A DNA stretch of 64,000 bases from Escherichia coli (GTDB lineage: Bacteria > Pseudomonadota > Gammaproteobacteria > Enterobacterales > Enterobacteriaceae). A model generated the notes under the pieces. It made no database searches and had not been told where the DNA came from. It saw only the letters and a list, made by a program, of their open reading frames with translations. The first letter of the stretch is position 1. Every line of letters begins with the position of its first letter. Position numbers and translations under genes: made by a program. This document shows, piece by piece, positions 1-4,560 of the stretch. The DNA lies in NCBI RefSeq assembly GCF_024298765.1, contig NZ_CP101210.1, one strand, 5' to 3'.

Positions 1-31
1 GCTTTCTGGTGCCGCGGCTTATAACGCGACG

Positions 32-616
32 ATGGCGGCAATTGGTGGGGGCTCACTGGCTGCAGGGGGCATGGGAATGGCCGGCGGCGCAATGGTATTA
101 GGCACCGCAGTGGCTGCACCGTTGATTGCCATTGCGGGCTGGGCTTACGACAGACATGCGACGAAAGCTCTTGAAAATGCCCATCAGTGTGCCTGCGATG
201 TTGCACGGGCAGTTAAGAAAATGAATCTGGCCCGGGAGCATTTTGCAAAAGTTAATCAATACGTTGATGAAATTCTCGCTGCACTGAACAGAATGCATGC
301 TGTATTTATTAAACACTATTTTGAGCCGCTTAAATCCATGCATTCTGTTATTACAGAACAACAGGATATCAGTGTATCAGATGAAGTCATTGTGCTTATT
401 GACCATGGATATTCACTGGCCGCTATTATGACGGATATTATTACAACGCCACTGTTTAAACCGCGGAAACAGGAAAATGGTGAGGCAGTGATAAAAGATA
501 ACGTTATTGAAATGGAAACGGATGATAATGGAATGAACGTTATTAATAAGGATGAGCTGGATGATGTACTGGCCAGTTCGGTTGTGAAATTTGATGATTT
601 TTCATCCCAGAGTTAA
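32..616 (+). CDS. Hypothetical membrane-associated protein, probably 5'-partial (reading frame stays open to position 2 at the window edge); Gly-rich hydrophobic segment followed by helical region
   Basis: ORF track; no stop codon in frame between position 2 and 32; glycine-zipper-like hydrophobic stretch (AAGGMGMAGGAMVLGTAVAAPLIAIAGW); C-terminal module resembles that of the next gene. Confidence 0.4.
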   Translation: MAAIGGGSLAAGGMGMAGGAMVLGTAVAAPLIAIAGWAYDRHATKALENAHQCACDVARAVKKMNLAREHFAKVNQYVDEILAALNRMHAVFIKHYFEPLKSMHSVITEQQDISVSDEVIVLIDHGYSLAAIMTDIITTPLFKPRKQENGEAVIKDNVIEMETDDNGMNVINKDELDDVLASSVVKFDDFSSQS

Positions 617-662
617 TGATTTACCGGGCGTTAAAGCCCGGCTTTACAAGAAGTGAAATAAC

Positions 663-2234
663 ATGAATGTGGAAAAATTTGACTGGACAGAAGAGTTACA
701 TCAGACCATGGTGAAGAGCCTGGTTACATCATTCGGGCTGGATTTTCTGTTGCTAAATGATCGTAAGGGTGGTGATGTTGACACTATCCATAATGTGCGT
801 AATGGCATTTATGCCACGGAGGCTGAGCGACAGCGGTATGAAGGTCGTGGCGAATATGATTCTCATCATTACCACAGCCATGAGAACTATATCGCGACGA
901 ACCGGGAAGGAAAGCGTGCGCATCAGGCAGGGACTCTTACTGATGCATATACAGGCGAGGTGTTTGCTTCTGACGACAAAAAAAATCTGGATCATATTAT
1001 TTCCGCTAAAGAAATTCATGATGATCCGGGGAGAATTCTTGCTGAACGGGATGGTGCAGAACTGGCAAATGACGCTTCAAATCTGGCATTCACTCATGAG
1101 TCGCTCAATAAATCAAAGAAAGCAGACTCAATGGATGCGTTTATTTGCACGCTGCAGAAAAACAGAGAAGATACGTTAAGGCAGATAGCAGAGCTTGAAT
1201 CTCAGGCAACGCTGACAGAAAAGGAAAAGAAACGTCTGATAAGTCTGAGAAAAAAAGCTGATGCAGATACTGAGCGTATGGAAAGGGCTGATAAATATGC
1301 CCGGGAAAAATATGAGGCCACGATTAATCAGAGCTATTACCTGAGTAGTAAGTTTGCTACTGCTGTCGCCAGTGCTTCGCTTAATTCCGGTTTTCGTATG
1401 GGGACGCGACAGATGTTGGGGCTTATTCTTGCCGAGATCTGGTTCGAACTGAGGGAACGAATCCCGCATATTATCAGGCAGCAACGGAACTCATTCAGCG
1501 CCGGCAAATGCCTGTCCGAAATAACGTCAGCATTACGTGCCTGCCAGGAACGAGTACAGGAAAAATTCAGTTCTTTTTTAATTGCCTTTAAAGATGGTGT
1601 CATCGGAGGGATACTGTCAGGTATTACCACAACGCTGTTAAATATATTCCTGACAACGGAAAGAATGATTGTCCGGCTTATCAGGGAAATGTGGAACAAT
1701 CTCGTTCAGGCCTTTAAAGTCCTGGTATTTAATCCGGAGGGATTATCGCCGGGGCAGTTAGCCAAAGCGGTCACTAAACTGATAGCAGCAGGTGTGGCTG
1801 TTGCCGGAGGGGTGATGATAAATGAGGCGATGGCGCAGATCCTTATTTTCCCATTTGGTTCAGAGCTTGCTGCCTTTTGTGGTGCGCTGACGACAGGTAT
1901 TCTCGGGCTGGTGATGAATTATTATCTCGAATATAGCGAGGTTATGCAGCGGGTATGGGCATTTCTGGACAAATTTAAGGACAAATTCCAGCGGTCACTG
2001 GAATACTTTCAGGCAGTCAATGCTGAACTTGATCGCTATCTTGTGGAACTTACTGCACTGGAATTTTCTGTTGATGCTGCCGAGTTAAATCATTTTTCAC
2101 TTCATCTGGATAGCGTAAACAGTGAGATAGAGCGCGGACTTCTGCTGAGAGAAGAAGTCCGCCGACGAGGGATTGCGTTGCCGTTTGAGTCAGGAAATGT
2201 GGCTTCTGTTCGTGACTGGTTAAATAAGCGATGA
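663..2234 (+). CDS. Hypothetical protein: N-terminal HNH-like (His-Me finger) signature, central coiled-coil, C-terminal hydrophobic helical hairpin
   Basis: 523-aa ORF; motif DHIIS...NDASNL...HESLNKSK resembles the HNH core (DH...N...N.K) without zinc-binding cysteines; Lys/Glu-rich heptad-like stretch; ~40-aa hydrophobic hairpin (AAGVAVAGGVMINEAMAQILIFPFGSELAAFCGALTTGILGLVM). Confidence 0.5.
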   Translation: MNVEKFDWTEELHQTMVKSLVTSFGLDFLLLNDRKGGDVDTIHNVRNGIYATEAERQRYEGRGEYDSHHYHSHENYIATNREGKRAHQAGTLTDAYTGEVFASDDKKNLDHIISAKEIHDDPGRILAERDGAELANDASNLAFTHESLNKSKKADSMDAFICTLQKNREDTLRQIAELESQATLTEKEKKRLISLRKKADADTERMERADKYAREKYEATINQSYYLSSKFATAVASASLNSGFRMGTRQMLGLILAEIWFELRERIPHIIRQQRNSFSAGKCLSEITSALRACQERVQEKFSSFLIAFKDGVIGGILSGITTTLLNIFLTTERMIVRLIREMWNNLVQAFKVLVFNPEGLSPGQLAKAVTKLIAAGVAVAGGVMINEAMAQILIFPFGSELAAFCGALTTGILGLVMNYYLEYSEVMQRVWAFLDKFKDKFQRSLEYFQAVNAELDRYLVELTALEFSVDAAELNHFSLHLDSVNSEIERGLLLREEVRRRGIALPFESGNVASVRDWLNKR

Positions 2235-2497: not shown

Positions 2498-2549
2498 TAC
2501 CATTAATGGCGGCGTCAGTACAGAAACTGAGAGAACATAAAGCAGTAAA

Positions 2550-2834
2550 ATGTCATACCGTTCAGCAGCCAGCGTTGCCTTCCCCGGCTGCTGTTATTGT
2601 AAGGCATTTTCGTTAAGAATGCAGAAGGAGAGGAGCGTGAGATTGCTGTTAAAAGGGCTCGTCGGAATGGCGCTGGCCTGGCTTGTTATTGGTTTCGGGA
2701 TGGAGTTATTTTTTCTCGCCGATCGGGTTCATCCGGCATTAAGAGTAATCGTTGGCCTGGGGATGTTATTCCTGATGATAATGATTGCGGGTGGTATGTG
2801 CGGTTCTCTTCTGTCACGAAAGAAAACATCATGA
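2550..2834 (+). CDS. Small predicted membrane protein (two hydrophobic helices); start codon uncertain
   Basis: ORF track; two ~20-aa hydrophobic segments; no recognisable family. Confidence 0.3.
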   Translation: MSYRSAASVAFPGCCYCKAFSLRMQKERSVRLLLKGLVGMALAWLVIGFGMELFFLADRVHPALRVIVGLGMLFLMIMIAGGMCGSLLSRKKTS

Positions 2835-2886
2835 CGTTCCTGTTTACGCCGCTACATTTGTGGTGGCTTTATGATTATTCAGAATA

Positions 2887-4560
2887 ATGAATTCACCTGT
2901 CGCGGCATGTTCAGCGACCAGCGCCGGACAGAAATATCGCTTTTTCTCAATTATTATGAAAATTAATCTTCCGTTCATACACTGGTCACGGATTAGCAAT
3001 GATAAGCGCCTCGTGTTATCAGTGGTTGTCTTTACCCTTTCTAATCTCCTTGTATCCTCAGGAGCGCATCTGATTTACCGGATATTATTCTTTATCCTGG
3101 CACTTCTTATTATTAAGGCAATGAAATCGATTACGTTGCGTTTGATTCTTGCCTTCCCGTTCACATTACTGACTGCTGCAGATATCAGTATCAGCCTGTA
3201 TTCATGGTGTACATTTGGCACAACATTTAATGATGGTTTTGCAATCAGTATCCTTCAGACAGATCCTGATGAAGTAATAAGAATGTTCAGGATGTATGTT
3301 GTTTATGTTATCGCATTTATTATCCTCTTTTTATTGTTCTTCTGTTCAGCAATAAATAAAACGTCCTCATTGCCATCGGAAAAGGTCACGGTAATTACAT
3401 TTTTATTGTTAATTACAGTAACGTTATATTCTTCCTTCCAGTTTGCGTTGAAGAAACAGTATCAAATAAATGAAGTTGATCCTTACATAGTCGCTTCCCG
3501 GTTTGCCACATATACCCCTTTCTTTAATCTGAACTATTTTGCACTGGCCGCAAAGGAGCATCAGAGATTAATGACGATTGCTGATACCATACCTCACTAC
3601 GATCTGGTGATTACGGATAACAACACTGACGTATTTGTTCTGGTGATTGGTGAATCTGCAAGGACTGATAACATGTCCATTTACGGGTATTCGCGCCCTA
3701 CCACACCAGAGCTTCAGAAACAGAAATCACGACTGAAACTGTTCACTCAGGCAATCAGTGGCGCACCTTACACCGCGCTGGCTGTTCCACTGGCGTTATC
3801 TGCCGATAGTGTACTGCATCATGATATCCGTAATTACCCTGATAACATTATCAACATGGCGAATCAGGCGGGGTTCGATACCTGGTGGCTCAGTGCGCAG
3901 TCCGCTTTCCGACAGAACGGAACGGCTGTGGCCAGTATCGCCATGCGGGCCAGAAACAGAATTTATGTCAGAGGCTATGATGAGTTACTGCTCCCACACC
4001 TGGCTGAAGCACTGAACAGTAATCCGGGGAGCAGGAAACTGATTGTTCTGCATCTGACGGGCAGCCATGAACCGGTTTGCAGTAACTGGCCCAGAGATAA
4101 AGCCGTGTTTAAACCGCTGGATACAGAAGAAGTCTGTTACGATAATTCCATTCATTATACCGACAGTTTGTTGGGACAGGTTTTCACCATGCTGGAAACG
4201 CGTCAGGCATCCGTCATGTATTTTTCAGATCACGGTCTGGAGTATGACCCGACAAAAGAACATGCCTATTTTCATGGTGGAATAAAACCCAGTCAGCAGG
4301 CTTATCATGTTCCGATGTTTATCTGGTACAGCCCGGCACTGGGAGAGCATGTCGATCGCCAGACGGTGAACAGCGTTTTTTCCACTGCGTATAATGATTA
4401 TCTGATTAATGCATGGATGGGCGTAACCAGACCGGCTCAACCGAAAACGCCGGAGGAGGTGATTACCCGCTGGCAGGGGAAATCCGTGGTTTTTGATGCC
4501 AGTCATAACGTGTTTGATTACAAAGTATTACGAAAGAACTTTAATGAACTCCAGGAATAA
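2887..4560 (+). CDS. Phosphoethanolamine transferase, sulfatase superfamily (EptA/YhbX/MCR-like): N-terminal multi-TM domain plus periplasmic catalytic domain
   Basis: N-terminal hydrophobic helices; motifs VLVIGESARTDNMSIYGY, HLTGSHEP and FSDHGLEYD typical of lipid A/LPS PEtN transferases; AT-rich coding sequence; alternative start at 2956 (MKINLPF) possible. Confidence 0.75.
   Translation: MNSPVAACSATSAGQKYRFFSIIMKINLPFIHWSRISNDKRLVLSVVVFTLSNLLVSSGAHLIYRILFFILALLIIKAMKSITLRLILAFPFTLLTAADISISLYSWCTFGTTFNDGFAISILQTDPDEVIRMFRMYVVYVIAFIILFLLFFCSAINKTSSLPSEKVTVITFLLLITVTLYSSFQFALKKQYQINEVDPYIVASRFATYTPFFNLNYFALAAKEHQRLMTIADTIPHYDLVITDNNTDVFVLVIGESARTDNMSIYGYSRPTTPELQKQKSRLKLFTQAISGAPYTALAVPLALSADSVLHHDIRNYPDNIINMANQAGFDTWWLSAQSAFRQNGTAVASIAMRARNRIYVRGYDELLLPHLAEALNSNPGSRKLIVLHLTGSHEPVCSNWPRDKAVFKPLDTEEVCYDNSIHYTDSLLGQVFTMLETRQASVMYFSDHGLEYDPTKEHAYFHGGIKPSQQAYHVPMFIWYSPALGEHVDRQTVNSVFSTAYNDYLINAWMGVTRPAQPKTPEEVITRWQGKSVVFDASHNVFDYKVLRKNFNELQE

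Follow-up and report, generated by a model that had tools for sequence, protein, structure and literature searches.

We analysed a 64,000-nt stretch of Escherichia coli DNA (contig NZ_CP101210.1 of assembly GCF_024298765.1; "the window"), in which positions 1-4560 carry five open reading frames (ORF1 to ORF5), all in the same direction, on a tRNA-associated island. ORF1, ORF2 and ORF3 (hereafter "the trio") are a real functional unit, separate from ORF4 and ORF5, which belong to the island backbone and are not members of the module. The first gene of the module lies just left of the window and encodes a regulator with winged helix-turn-helix (wHTH), WYL and WCX domains, the architecture of BrxR and CapW. 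We propose that the regulator and the trio may together constitute a WYL-controlled, membrane-anchored, nuclease-type system for defence against phages or other mobile DNA, a reading in which we place about even confidence. We give somewhat more weight than that to the broader view that the module serves in some way as a system for defence or against mobile elements, and less to the nuclease step specifically, which is suggested by a sequence motif.

The five genes had originally been predicted, from the DNA letters alone, to be a single operon-like, envelope-associated cassette at the distal end of a pheV island. All five ORFs lie where that prediction placed them, and their junctions are indeed short or overlapping: the ORF2 stop codon and the ORF3 start codon share an ATGA, and the gaps between ORF1 and ORF2 and between ORF4 and ORF5 are 46 nt and 52 nt. 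The tRNA of the island is also present, as a tRNA-Phe gene at window positions 16105-16180 (minus strand). The position proposed for the cassette has to be revised, since the identical locus of E. coli strain W2-5 has over 40 kb of additional island sequence on the side away from pheV, and the cassette is therefore not at its distal end. The features of the window that are discussed below are as follows.

1..616, plus strand: 3' part of ORF1 (aa 156-359 of a 359-aa protein; WP_001207396), a core member of the module
2..151, plus strand: visible part of the Gly/Ala-rich hydrophobic core of ORF1 (aa 156-205), predicted membrane-embedded, glycine-zipper-like helices
663..2234, plus strand: ORF2 (523 aa; WP_001100182), a core member of the module
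942..1118, plus strand: HNH-like (His-Me finger) motif of ORF2 (aa 94-152)
1563..1934, plus strand: hydrophobic helices of ORF2 (aa 301-424), a predicted membrane anchor or hairpins
2231..2497, plus strand: ORF3 (88 aa), a CxxCxxCC (YkgJ-family) cysteine-cluster protein, the third member of the module
2498..2636, no strand: right-hand junction between cargo and backbone, from blastn of locus L001 against locus L012 and a three-way DNA alignment
2637..2834, plus strand: ORF4, a 65-aa two-helix membrane protein with a GTG start; island backbone
2887..4560, plus strand: ORF5 (557 aa), a divergent protein of the phosphoethanolamine (PEtN) transferase family; island backbone

The conserved module comprises ORF1, ORF2 and ORF3

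We scanned one genome per species, from 100,044 species, with an ORF2 profile; 170 species proved to have relatives, and 80 loci were retrieved. ORFs called in these loci were searched with each of the window proteins, and the 78 loci in which ORF2 was called, from Gamma-, Beta- and Alphaproteobacteria, Desulfovibrio and Firmicutes, form the denominator for the counts that follow. An ORF1 homologue adjoins ORF2 in 77 of the 78 loci and an ORF3 homologue in 74, with the complete trio in 73; loci without a full trio are contig ends or frameshifted copies. The Vibrio cholerae ORF3 was missed by the gene caller yet is present (L008:10817-11107). The genes are in the order 1-2-3 in Proteobacteria and 2-3-1 in seven loci (Firmicutes, Desulfovibrio and Pararhodospirillum), and the persistence of the linkage through this rearrangement is strong evidence that the trio is a functional unit. 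By contrast, ORF4 and ORF5 stand beside the trio in only one of the 78 loci, an E. coli-like metagenome-assembled genome, and neither the PEtN transferase gene nor ORF4 was found beside the trio in any of the 77 loci from outside E. coli. Hence, gene-neighbourhood conservation, a check suggested with the original prediction, separates the co-conserved ORF1-3 from ORF4 and ORF5, and the five genes are not one conserved cassette.

A gene for a WYL regulator is found 5' of the module in 45 of the 78 loci and is absent from the other 33. It lies directly 5' of the trio in E. coli, Pseudomonas, Vibrio, Serratia and Morganellaceae. In E. coli we viewed the sequence left of the window in strain W2-5 (locus L001); DNA identical to that studied here occurs in many complete E. 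coli chromosomes. The W2-5 regulator is a 298-aa protein encoded directly 5' of ORF1 on the same strand, with matches to HTH_11 (E = 0.0014), WYL (8.7e-09), WCX (3.3e-07) and the WYL models of PADLOC (2.6e-22). The unit of the original prediction is upheld for ORF1-3 and fails as a five-gene unit, and its true first gene lies left of the window.

Two observations concern the regulator and its surroundings. A perfect palindrome, CTGACA-AATGA-TGTCAG (L001:10522-10538), lies ~55 nt 5' of the regulator start codon and ~1.46 kb left of window position 1, and is a candidate operator for autoregulation by the WYL protein. In five of the 78 loci the module includes a small TerB-like gene; this 130-aa protein, faintly TerB-like by Pfam, is encoded between the WYL gene and ORF1 at L008:7606-7998, with further examples in L028, L050, L057, L062 and L064, and the module versions that carry the insertion are those of Vibrio, Moraxella, Mesocricetibacter and Oceanisphaera.

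The regulator and trio replace leoCBA in a shared island backbone

Farther 5' in L001 are a gene for a tia-like outer-membrane protein and an integrase fragment. In E. coli strain RIVM_C039227, a backbone at tRNA-Sec has the order integrase fragment, tia, leoC-leoB-leoA, ORF4, PEtN transferase, tetratricopeptide repeat (TPR) protein, integrase, tRNA. A blastn comparison of L001 with the leoCBA island (L012) gave 81% identity up to the stop codon of the outer-membrane protein gene and 95% identity from the GTG of the 65-aa ORF4 onward, with nothing shared between. The three-way DNA alignment puts the homology breakpoint at window position 2637, and the cargo ends between 2497 and 2636. The regulator and trio therefore make up a 4.46-kb segment that fills the slot of leoCBA in an otherwise 81-95% identical backbone, the general form of which (window 2637-5723 plus the left part) is tia-like outer-membrane protein, cargo, 65-aa protein, PEtN transferase, TPR protein, integrase, tRNA. 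In E. coli this backbone occupies pheV, pheU and selC (loci L012, L104 and L105 among them).

Genome counts agree with this arrangement. Of the 5426 complete genomes of E. coli, 385 have ORF1-3 DNA (373 at >=80% coverage), 695 have the ORF4-ORF5 region (445 at >=80% coverage) and 76 have leoCBA (65 at >=80% coverage), such that the trio (373) and leoCBA (65) account for 438 of the 445 full-length backbones. The breakpoint at 2637, the genome counts and the restriction of conserved linkage to the trio together indicate that the five genes are three cargo genes and two backbone genes. The original prediction had also counted an envelope-modifying enzyme as part of the combination. This element falls away with the exclusion of ORF4 and the PEtN transferase, which are part of a backbone that is 95% identical in leoCBA islands and which do not accompany the trio in any other taxon examined.

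The reading of all five genes as an envelope-associated module, ORF4 and the PEtN transferase included, has some points in its favour: the genes are co-directional with short gaps, they occur together in 351 E. coli genomes, and there is no convincing terminator between ORF3 and ORF4, such that read-through transcription is possible in E. coli. Scans for promoters and terminators within the window gave no excess over shuffled controls, and are consequently uninformative as to whether ORF3 is co-transcribed with ORF4 and ORF5. Nonetheless, ORF4 and ORF5 are found 3' of leoCBA in at least 65 E. coli genomes, homology breaks between ORF3 and ORF4, none of the 77 loci from outside E. coli has either gene beside the trio, and GC content falls from ~0.46 to 0.37-0.41 across the 5' half of ORF5. 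As an evolutionary unit the five-gene module is largely refuted, and we regard this reading as very improbable.

ORF1 and ORF2 are predicted membrane proteins outside characterised families

The individual proteins are much as originally described. ORF1 was correctly called as 5'-partial with a Gly-rich hydrophobic stretch, and ORF2 as a 523-aa protein with an HNH-like signature, a coiled coil and a hydrophobic hairpin; our analysis places hydrophobic helices of ORF2 at ~aa 301-424. The statement that neither matched a nameable family also stands, since no profile or fold search placed ORF1 or ORF2 in a characterised family.

Complete ORF1 (359 aa; L001:11537-12616) begins with a hydrophobic helix and also contains long coiled-coil helices; its Gly/Ala-rich hydrophobic core at ~aa 117-205 includes 28 Ala and 16 Gly in an 87-residue stretch. 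The core is near-invariant in E. coli, Vibrio, Pseudomonas and Gilliamella, with overall identity of 44-55% (alignment A2), and the AlphaFold2 (AF2) model has a predicted local distance difference test score (pLDDT) below 50 across the part of it that lies in the window (aa 156-205). ORF1 homologues form more than 1200 clusters. ORF1 has no match in Pfam, and none that is significant in NCBIfam or PHROGs; its RefSeq name, "chemotaxis protein" (WP_001207396), is without support.

ORF2 homologues form more than 1000 clusters. The protein consists of an N-terminal HNH-like domain, a variable coiled coil, a hydrophobic helical domain and C-terminal helices; hydrophobic segments on the Kyte-Doolittle scale are at aa 311-333, 363-400 and 388-423, with a conserved P397-x-G399 turn. 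The N-terminal domain contains the motif D94-A-Y-T-G ... L-D110-H111 ... N140-L-x-x-T144 ... N149-x-x-K152, in which D94, Y96, D110, H111, N140, T144, N149 and K152 show no variation in either of two alignments (A1, 35 proteobacterial sequences; A4, 24 sequences including Firmicutes and Desulfovibrio). The canonical HNH motif is CxxCG...DH...NLxxxCxxCNxxK; the ORF2 motif corresponds to it in order and spacing, with the four zinc cysteines replaced. The AF2 model is confident over aa 40-225 (pLDDT >90) and, within this region, has strands at 107-111 and 141-145 followed by a helix at 146-152. The HNH-like signature of the original prediction, including D110, H111, N140, N149 and K152, is accordingly upheld at the level of the motif.

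At the level of profiles and folds, ORF2 does not group with the HNH superfamily, to which it may belong by its motif. GmrSD_C was the only recurrent Pfam match and is weak, with independent E-values (i-E) of 0.22 for full-length ORF2, 0.028 for the N-terminal domain and 0.02 for the best family member; three of 24 ORF2 family members reach i-E <=0.1 against an HNH-type profile, and none of the 24 reaches 0.001. There was no significant match to ORF2 in Pfam, NCBIfam or PHROGs. A profile of the N-terminal domain searched against 1.84 billion representative proteins retrieved 819 clusters; nearly all of the best 150 have the same 510-590-aa architecture, and the search therefore gave no link to a known family. 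Sequence-profile searches of the PDB with both families (A1, A2 and A4) yielded chance matches only, with no solved relative. The RefSeq name of ORF2, "ATP--cob(I)alamin adenosyltransferase", was likewise rejected, as Pfam and NCBIfam scans found no such domain. We note that this name (also as "cobalamin adenosyltransferase") and the "chemotaxis protein" label of ORF1 are attached to thousands of RefSeq and GenBank sequences.

Set beside HNH/His-Me finger nucleases (PF01844; GmrSD_C/DUF1524, PF07510; the Cas9 HNH domain), ORF2 resembles them in its D-x-Y-x-G ... D-H ... N-L-x-x-T ... N-x-x-K motif, which has canonical order and spacing. It differs in having D94, T97, T144 and S147 in place of the four zinc-ligand cysteines, ~16 extra residues between the DH strand and the N-L strand, a location N-terminal to a membrane region, and no significant profile or fold match.

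ORF3 is an eight-cysteine protein coupled to ORF2

ORF3 fits its original description as an 88-aa CxxCxxCC protein coupled to ORF2 by the ATGA overlap. It matches Pfam PF03692 (CxxCxxCC) with an i-E of 0.0015 over 73 of 85 model positions and the NCBIfam YcgN family with 2e-4, which is under that family's cut-off; RefSeq names it "YkgJ family cysteine cluster protein". Eight cysteines are conserved among 79 sequences: C9, C12, C15, C16, C35, C45 and C55 are invariant, and C82 is present in 97%. DpdM, a relative of E. coli YkgJ, has been proposed to be a preQ1 methyltransferase. A methyltransferase role for ORF3, by analogy with DpdM and FliB, was considered and not adopted; ORF3 is only 88 aa long.

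The module is mobile and is found near defence systems

The trio has a sporadic distribution (~7% of complete E. coli genomes; 170 of the 100,044 species), and several of its neighbourhoods are rich in defence genes. In V. cholerae the module, with its WYL regulator and TerB-like gene, adjoins a gene for a BrxR-type regulator and then Wadjet or BREX genes, with SIR2- and NERD-domain genes nearby. In Morganellaceae it lies in integrase-bearing elements, where its neighbours include Kiwa, BrxR with a type I restriction-modification (RM) system and GmrSD, a PvuRts1I-like gene, Hachiman and ArdA. In E. coli, genes for a type I RM system and for an AAA ATPase with matches to PADLOC defence models lie 5' of it. 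Other copies have no such company. Those of Pseudomonas and Serratia, regulator included, are surrounded by housekeeping genes, and no further island genes are close by; the four-gene block of Serratia we count as a sign of mobility. In Aeromonas the trio is found among housekeeping genes without the regulator.

Mobility is also apparent from the replicons involved. ORF2 relatives are carried by 69 plasmids, 39 of them from Klebsiella, including an IncFIB plasmid with a WYL fragment, the trio and insertion sequence (IS) elements, and the module occurs on conjugative plasmids and on elements resembling integrative and conjugative elements (ICE-like elements). Four jumbo Aeromonas phages of ~260 kb (LAh10, D3, D6 and D9) have adjacent ORF1-like (34% identity) and ORF2-like (30% identity, full-length) genes, at L103:3979-6575 in LAh10; the ORF2-like protein keeps D110, H111, N140, N149 and K152. 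Next in these phages comes a gene for a 152-aa protein whose hydrophobic N-terminal stretch resembles a signal peptide.

A second, paralogous module lies directly 5' of the trio in Acinetobacter pecorum (L067:2296-6193). Besides a WYL regulator and a 104-aa coiled-coil protein, it encodes an ORF1-like (PDC-M09A) protein with the same Gly/Ala-rich core and a 532-aa membrane protein whose N-terminal domain is unrelated; the ORF1 type consequently looks like a shared scaffold with variable partners.

Relationship to known and candidate systems

Relatives of the trio have already been flagged computationally as defence candidates. ORF2 matches the PADLOC model PDC-M40B (E = 1.3e-42, 144 bits; aa 11-425 against model positions 19-436 of 547), as does its Vibrio homologue (3.2e-34), and ORF1 matches two PDC-M09A models (3.5e-22 and 1.5e-15), for which the paralogues in L067 and L081 score higher. 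Both are unvalidated candidates, and the two matches of the module fall in two separate candidate systems. None of the WYL regulator, ORF1, ORF3, ORF4 and ORF5 matches the partner protein PDC-M40A at E <=0.01. The modest bit scores suggest that the trio is a sister group and not the modelled family itself. A search of the open-access literature found no publication naming PDC-M40 or PDC-M09, and searches there for the PDC names, the WP accessions and CxxCxxCC/YkgJ with defence returned nothing on the trio (subscription-only papers lie outside this coverage).

The system that shares the trio's location is LeoABC (leoCBA of the tia island of enterotoxigenic E. coli), which occupies the same slot between the tia-like outer-membrane protein gene and ORF4 with the PEtN transferase. 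Relatives of leoABC are reportedly the Eleos defence system, said to have been described by Millman et al. in 2022. LeoABC proteins resemble those of the trio in being membrane-associated and in having coiled coils and a Gly-rich hydrophobic segment. However, ORF1 and ORF2 lack a GTPase or dynamin domain by Pfam, and the present module differs further by its HNH-like domain, its Cys-cluster protein and its WYL regulator. We considered ORF1 as a LeoB or LeoC homologue and rejected this: BLASTP of the ORF1 and ORF2 proteins against LeoB and LeoC was not significant, and a match of the LeoBC hidden Markov model to Vibrio ORF1 is weak (E = 1e-5) and spans the coiled-coil and Gly-rich segments.

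In its control, the module resembles operons governed by BrxR and CapW, which have a regulator of the same wHTH-WYL-WCX architecture directly 5' and on the same strand. BrxR and CapW control BREX and CBASS (PMC9122601, PMC11662680), and BrxR-type regulators co-localise with diverse defence systems (PMC9122601). The effector genes of the trio are unrelated to those of BREX and CBASS, and 33 of the 78 loci lack the regulator.

A parallel may also be drawn with Zorya (ZorAB with ZorC/D) and Kiwa (KwaA-KwaB), in that the trio may likewise be a membrane complex coupled to DNA activity on the cytoplasmic side. Zorya and Kiwa combine a membrane-embedded sensor complex with a DNA-targeting effector. 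PADLOC and Pfam scans found no MotAB-like, KwaA or KwaB domains in the module proteins; the trio adjoins Kiwa in one Morganellaceae locus. Unlike in those systems, the nuclease-like domain of the trio is fused to the membrane protein itself. The layout is also reminiscent of colicin E-type DNase/immunity pairs, in which a gene for an HNH-type protein is followed by a small coupled gene of ~85-90 codons, and by analogy with colicin immunity genes ORF3 could be an inhibitor. It differs in that ORF3 is a conserved eight-cysteine protein unlike Im proteins, the nuclease-like domain is N-terminal in ORF2, the module has no secretion or receptor-binding features, and the phage copies have no ORF3. 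By these analogies the module would work most like Zorya/Kiwa-type sensor-effector systems and BrxR/CapW-controlled operons, and it is a member of none of these groups.

A proposed mechanism and its alternatives

Our proposal builds on the linkage of the trio, the coupling of ORF2 to ORF3, the BrxR/CapW-type regulator, mobility, the defence-rich neighbourhoods, the exchange with leoCBA, the motifs and the hydrophobic cores. ORF1 and ORF2 would reside jointly in the inner membrane through their Gly/Ala-rich and hydrophobic helices, with the coiled coils in the cytoplasm. The N-terminal domain of ORF2 would be an HNH-type nuclease that dispenses with the usual zinc-binding cysteines, and ORF3, a putative metal-binding protein made in step with ORF2, may bind, control or complete this domain. 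The WYL regulator would hold expression low until infection or DNA damage occurs. On infection, the membrane complex would sense the event and the nuclease would cut DNA at the membrane, the target being either incoming phage DNA or, in an abortive mode, any cellular DNA. "Undescribed defence module", a narrower form of the reading in the original prediction, is a fair description of ORF1-3 given their mobility and defence-rich contexts, and does not extend to ORF4 and the PEtN transferase.

Several observations weigh against this proposal. The HNH assignment lacks statistical support, with a best Pfam i-E of 0.02; the top Foldseek match of ORF2 is a Cas9 at E = 0.5; and hhalign of the N-terminal domain with a Cas9 HNH segment places the DH strand in register at ~1% probability, which is a lead only. 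AF2 confidence is low in the membrane parts of ORF1 and ORF2, and fold searches with the two models found no informative structural neighbour. The association with defence islands was judged from a handful of loci, and the Aeromonas and Serratia copies have housekeeping genes as neighbours. No ORF3 or other CxxCxxCC gene follows the ORF2-like gene in the jumbo Aeromonas phages, and a pair carried by phages without ORF3 could serve a phage-side function. WYL proteins such as DriD and SiwR govern DNA-damage regulons that have nothing to do with defence, and no experiment on this family was found in the open-access literature searched.

The module might instead be a toxin or abortive-infection system that brings about cell death via the membrane, with the ORF1 glycine zipper and the ORF2 helices forming a pore or disrupting the bilayer, the HNH-like domain only binding or sensing DNA, and ORF3 acting as a restraint. 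We consider this unlikely. It would account for the Gly/Ala-rich core of ORF1 being the most conserved part of the module, and it is consistent with the Acinetobacter module, where a PDC-M09A-type protein has an unrelated membrane protein of 532 aa as its partner, the added TerB-like gene in five loci, and the allelic relationship with leoCBA, which encodes membrane-active dynamin-like proteins. However, the HNH-like domain keeps its catalytic-type residues unchanged from phylum to phylum, which would be unexpected for a mere binding domain; moreover, the hydrophobic segments are Ala/Gly-rich and only weakly hydrophobic, and neither protein has a specific fold match to a pore-former. We see as distinctly unlikely the possibility that the module has no role in defence and is a WYL-controlled DNA-damage or stress response, or a membrane device for DNA processing (for example, exclusion of transferred DNA), that operates for the benefit of the mobile element. 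Such a function would fit the role of the WYL regulators DriD, PafBC and SiwR in driving DNA-damage responses, together with the database name "DNA repair protein" for one ORF2 homologue, the carriage of the module on conjugative plasmids, ICE-like elements and jumbo phages, and the housekeeping neighbours in Aeromonas and Serratia. It is at odds with the sporadic distribution, the recurrence of validated defence systems as neighbours, the exchange with leoCBA in one backbone and the presence of relatives on the PADLOC candidate list. These four features fit defence better than housekeeping repair, and are compatible with competition between mobile elements.

A stronger version of the defence proposal, which we hold with little confidence, is that the trio represents a new class of immune device: an inner-membrane HNH nuclease, with an ORF1/PDC-M09A glycine-zipper scaffold that accepts interchangeable effectors, lacking zinc-binding cysteines of its own and reliant on the eight-cysteine metal protein ORF3 for its activity or control, guarding the point of entry of foreign DNA, and with the ORF1-ORF2 pair having been captured by jumbo phages. 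Should the module prove to be a defence system, bacterial immunity would gain a widespread family whose proteins have no known folds, and which spans ~7% of the complete E. coli genomes, 170 or more species from several phyla, Klebsiella plasmids, ICE-like elements and jumbo phages. Fusion of a nuclease-type domain to a membrane anchor would be a rare arrangement, and the family would provide a first functional lead for a small CxxCxxCC/YkgJ-type protein in a conserved operon. The layout of a WYL regulator with a nuclease-type effector is known, as are PADLOC-flagged relatives; what is new is an uncharacterised membrane architecture with two proteins that lack known folds. We infer the function of the trio, many uncharacterised candidates of a similar sort exist, and its relatives had already been flagged. 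The exchange with leoCBA within one island backbone offers a ready-made natural comparison, and the RefSeq names "ATP--cob(I)alamin adenosyltransferase" and "chemotaxis protein" need correcting.

ORF4, ORF5 and the remainder of the island

ORF4 is, as originally described, a small membrane protein with two hydrophobic helices by hydropathy, and it is directly 5' of the PEtN transferase gene in the leo island too. Its most likely start is the GTG at 2637 (65 aa), in agreement with a GGAGAGG Shine-Dalgarno sequence, the RefSeq call and the onset of homology with the leo island; an alternative 94-aa reading from 2550 is less likely. ORF5 has a sulfatase-fold domain (6.2e-50, aa 250-497) and hydrophobic segments at aa 38-190, with at least five transmembrane helices. 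Its best NCBIfam score is 163.5 bits (cut-off 500); the CptA model scores 146.5 (cut-off 404), and MCR models score 38-67 bits against cut-offs of at least 1075. By these curated cut-offs ORF5 is, on sequence grounds, classed in the PEtN-transferase family and outside every named subfamily (EptA, EptB, CptA, MCR-1 to MCR-13); the original call of an AT-rich EptA/MCR-type enzyme is therefore supported at the family level, through the sulfatase match and the low GC content of the 5' half. We regard the PEtN transferase as a separate question: it may be a divergent, island-borne modifier of lipid A or the envelope, and is not mcr-like by the curated cut-offs.

The DNA 3' of the PEtN transferase gene carries a TPR protein gene on the opposite strand (window 4704-5723, minus strand) and, at 5788-6425, IS1 and integrase-core fragments. 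A carbohydrate porin gene (7003-8397, minus strand) is followed by genes for a glycoside hydrolase of family GH32, a major facilitator superfamily transporter and an alpha-galactosidase, apparently forming a cluster for sugar utilisation, and beyond them lie the island integrase and pheV. On the other side of the module, L001:27-8804 contains a DEAD/DEAH helicase gene and the type I RM system (M and S subunits), then genes for the 540-aa AAA ATPase, which matches the PADLOC models PDC-M55A, NsnB and AriA, and a 298-aa hypothetical protein. This region is likely a further defence cluster in the same island. Further from pheV, the W2-5 island carries sul2, aph(3'')-Ib, aph(6)-Id, tet(A) and floR along with a dGTPase-family gene (L101:11619-18483), indicating a composite island in which resistance and defence cargo are mixed.

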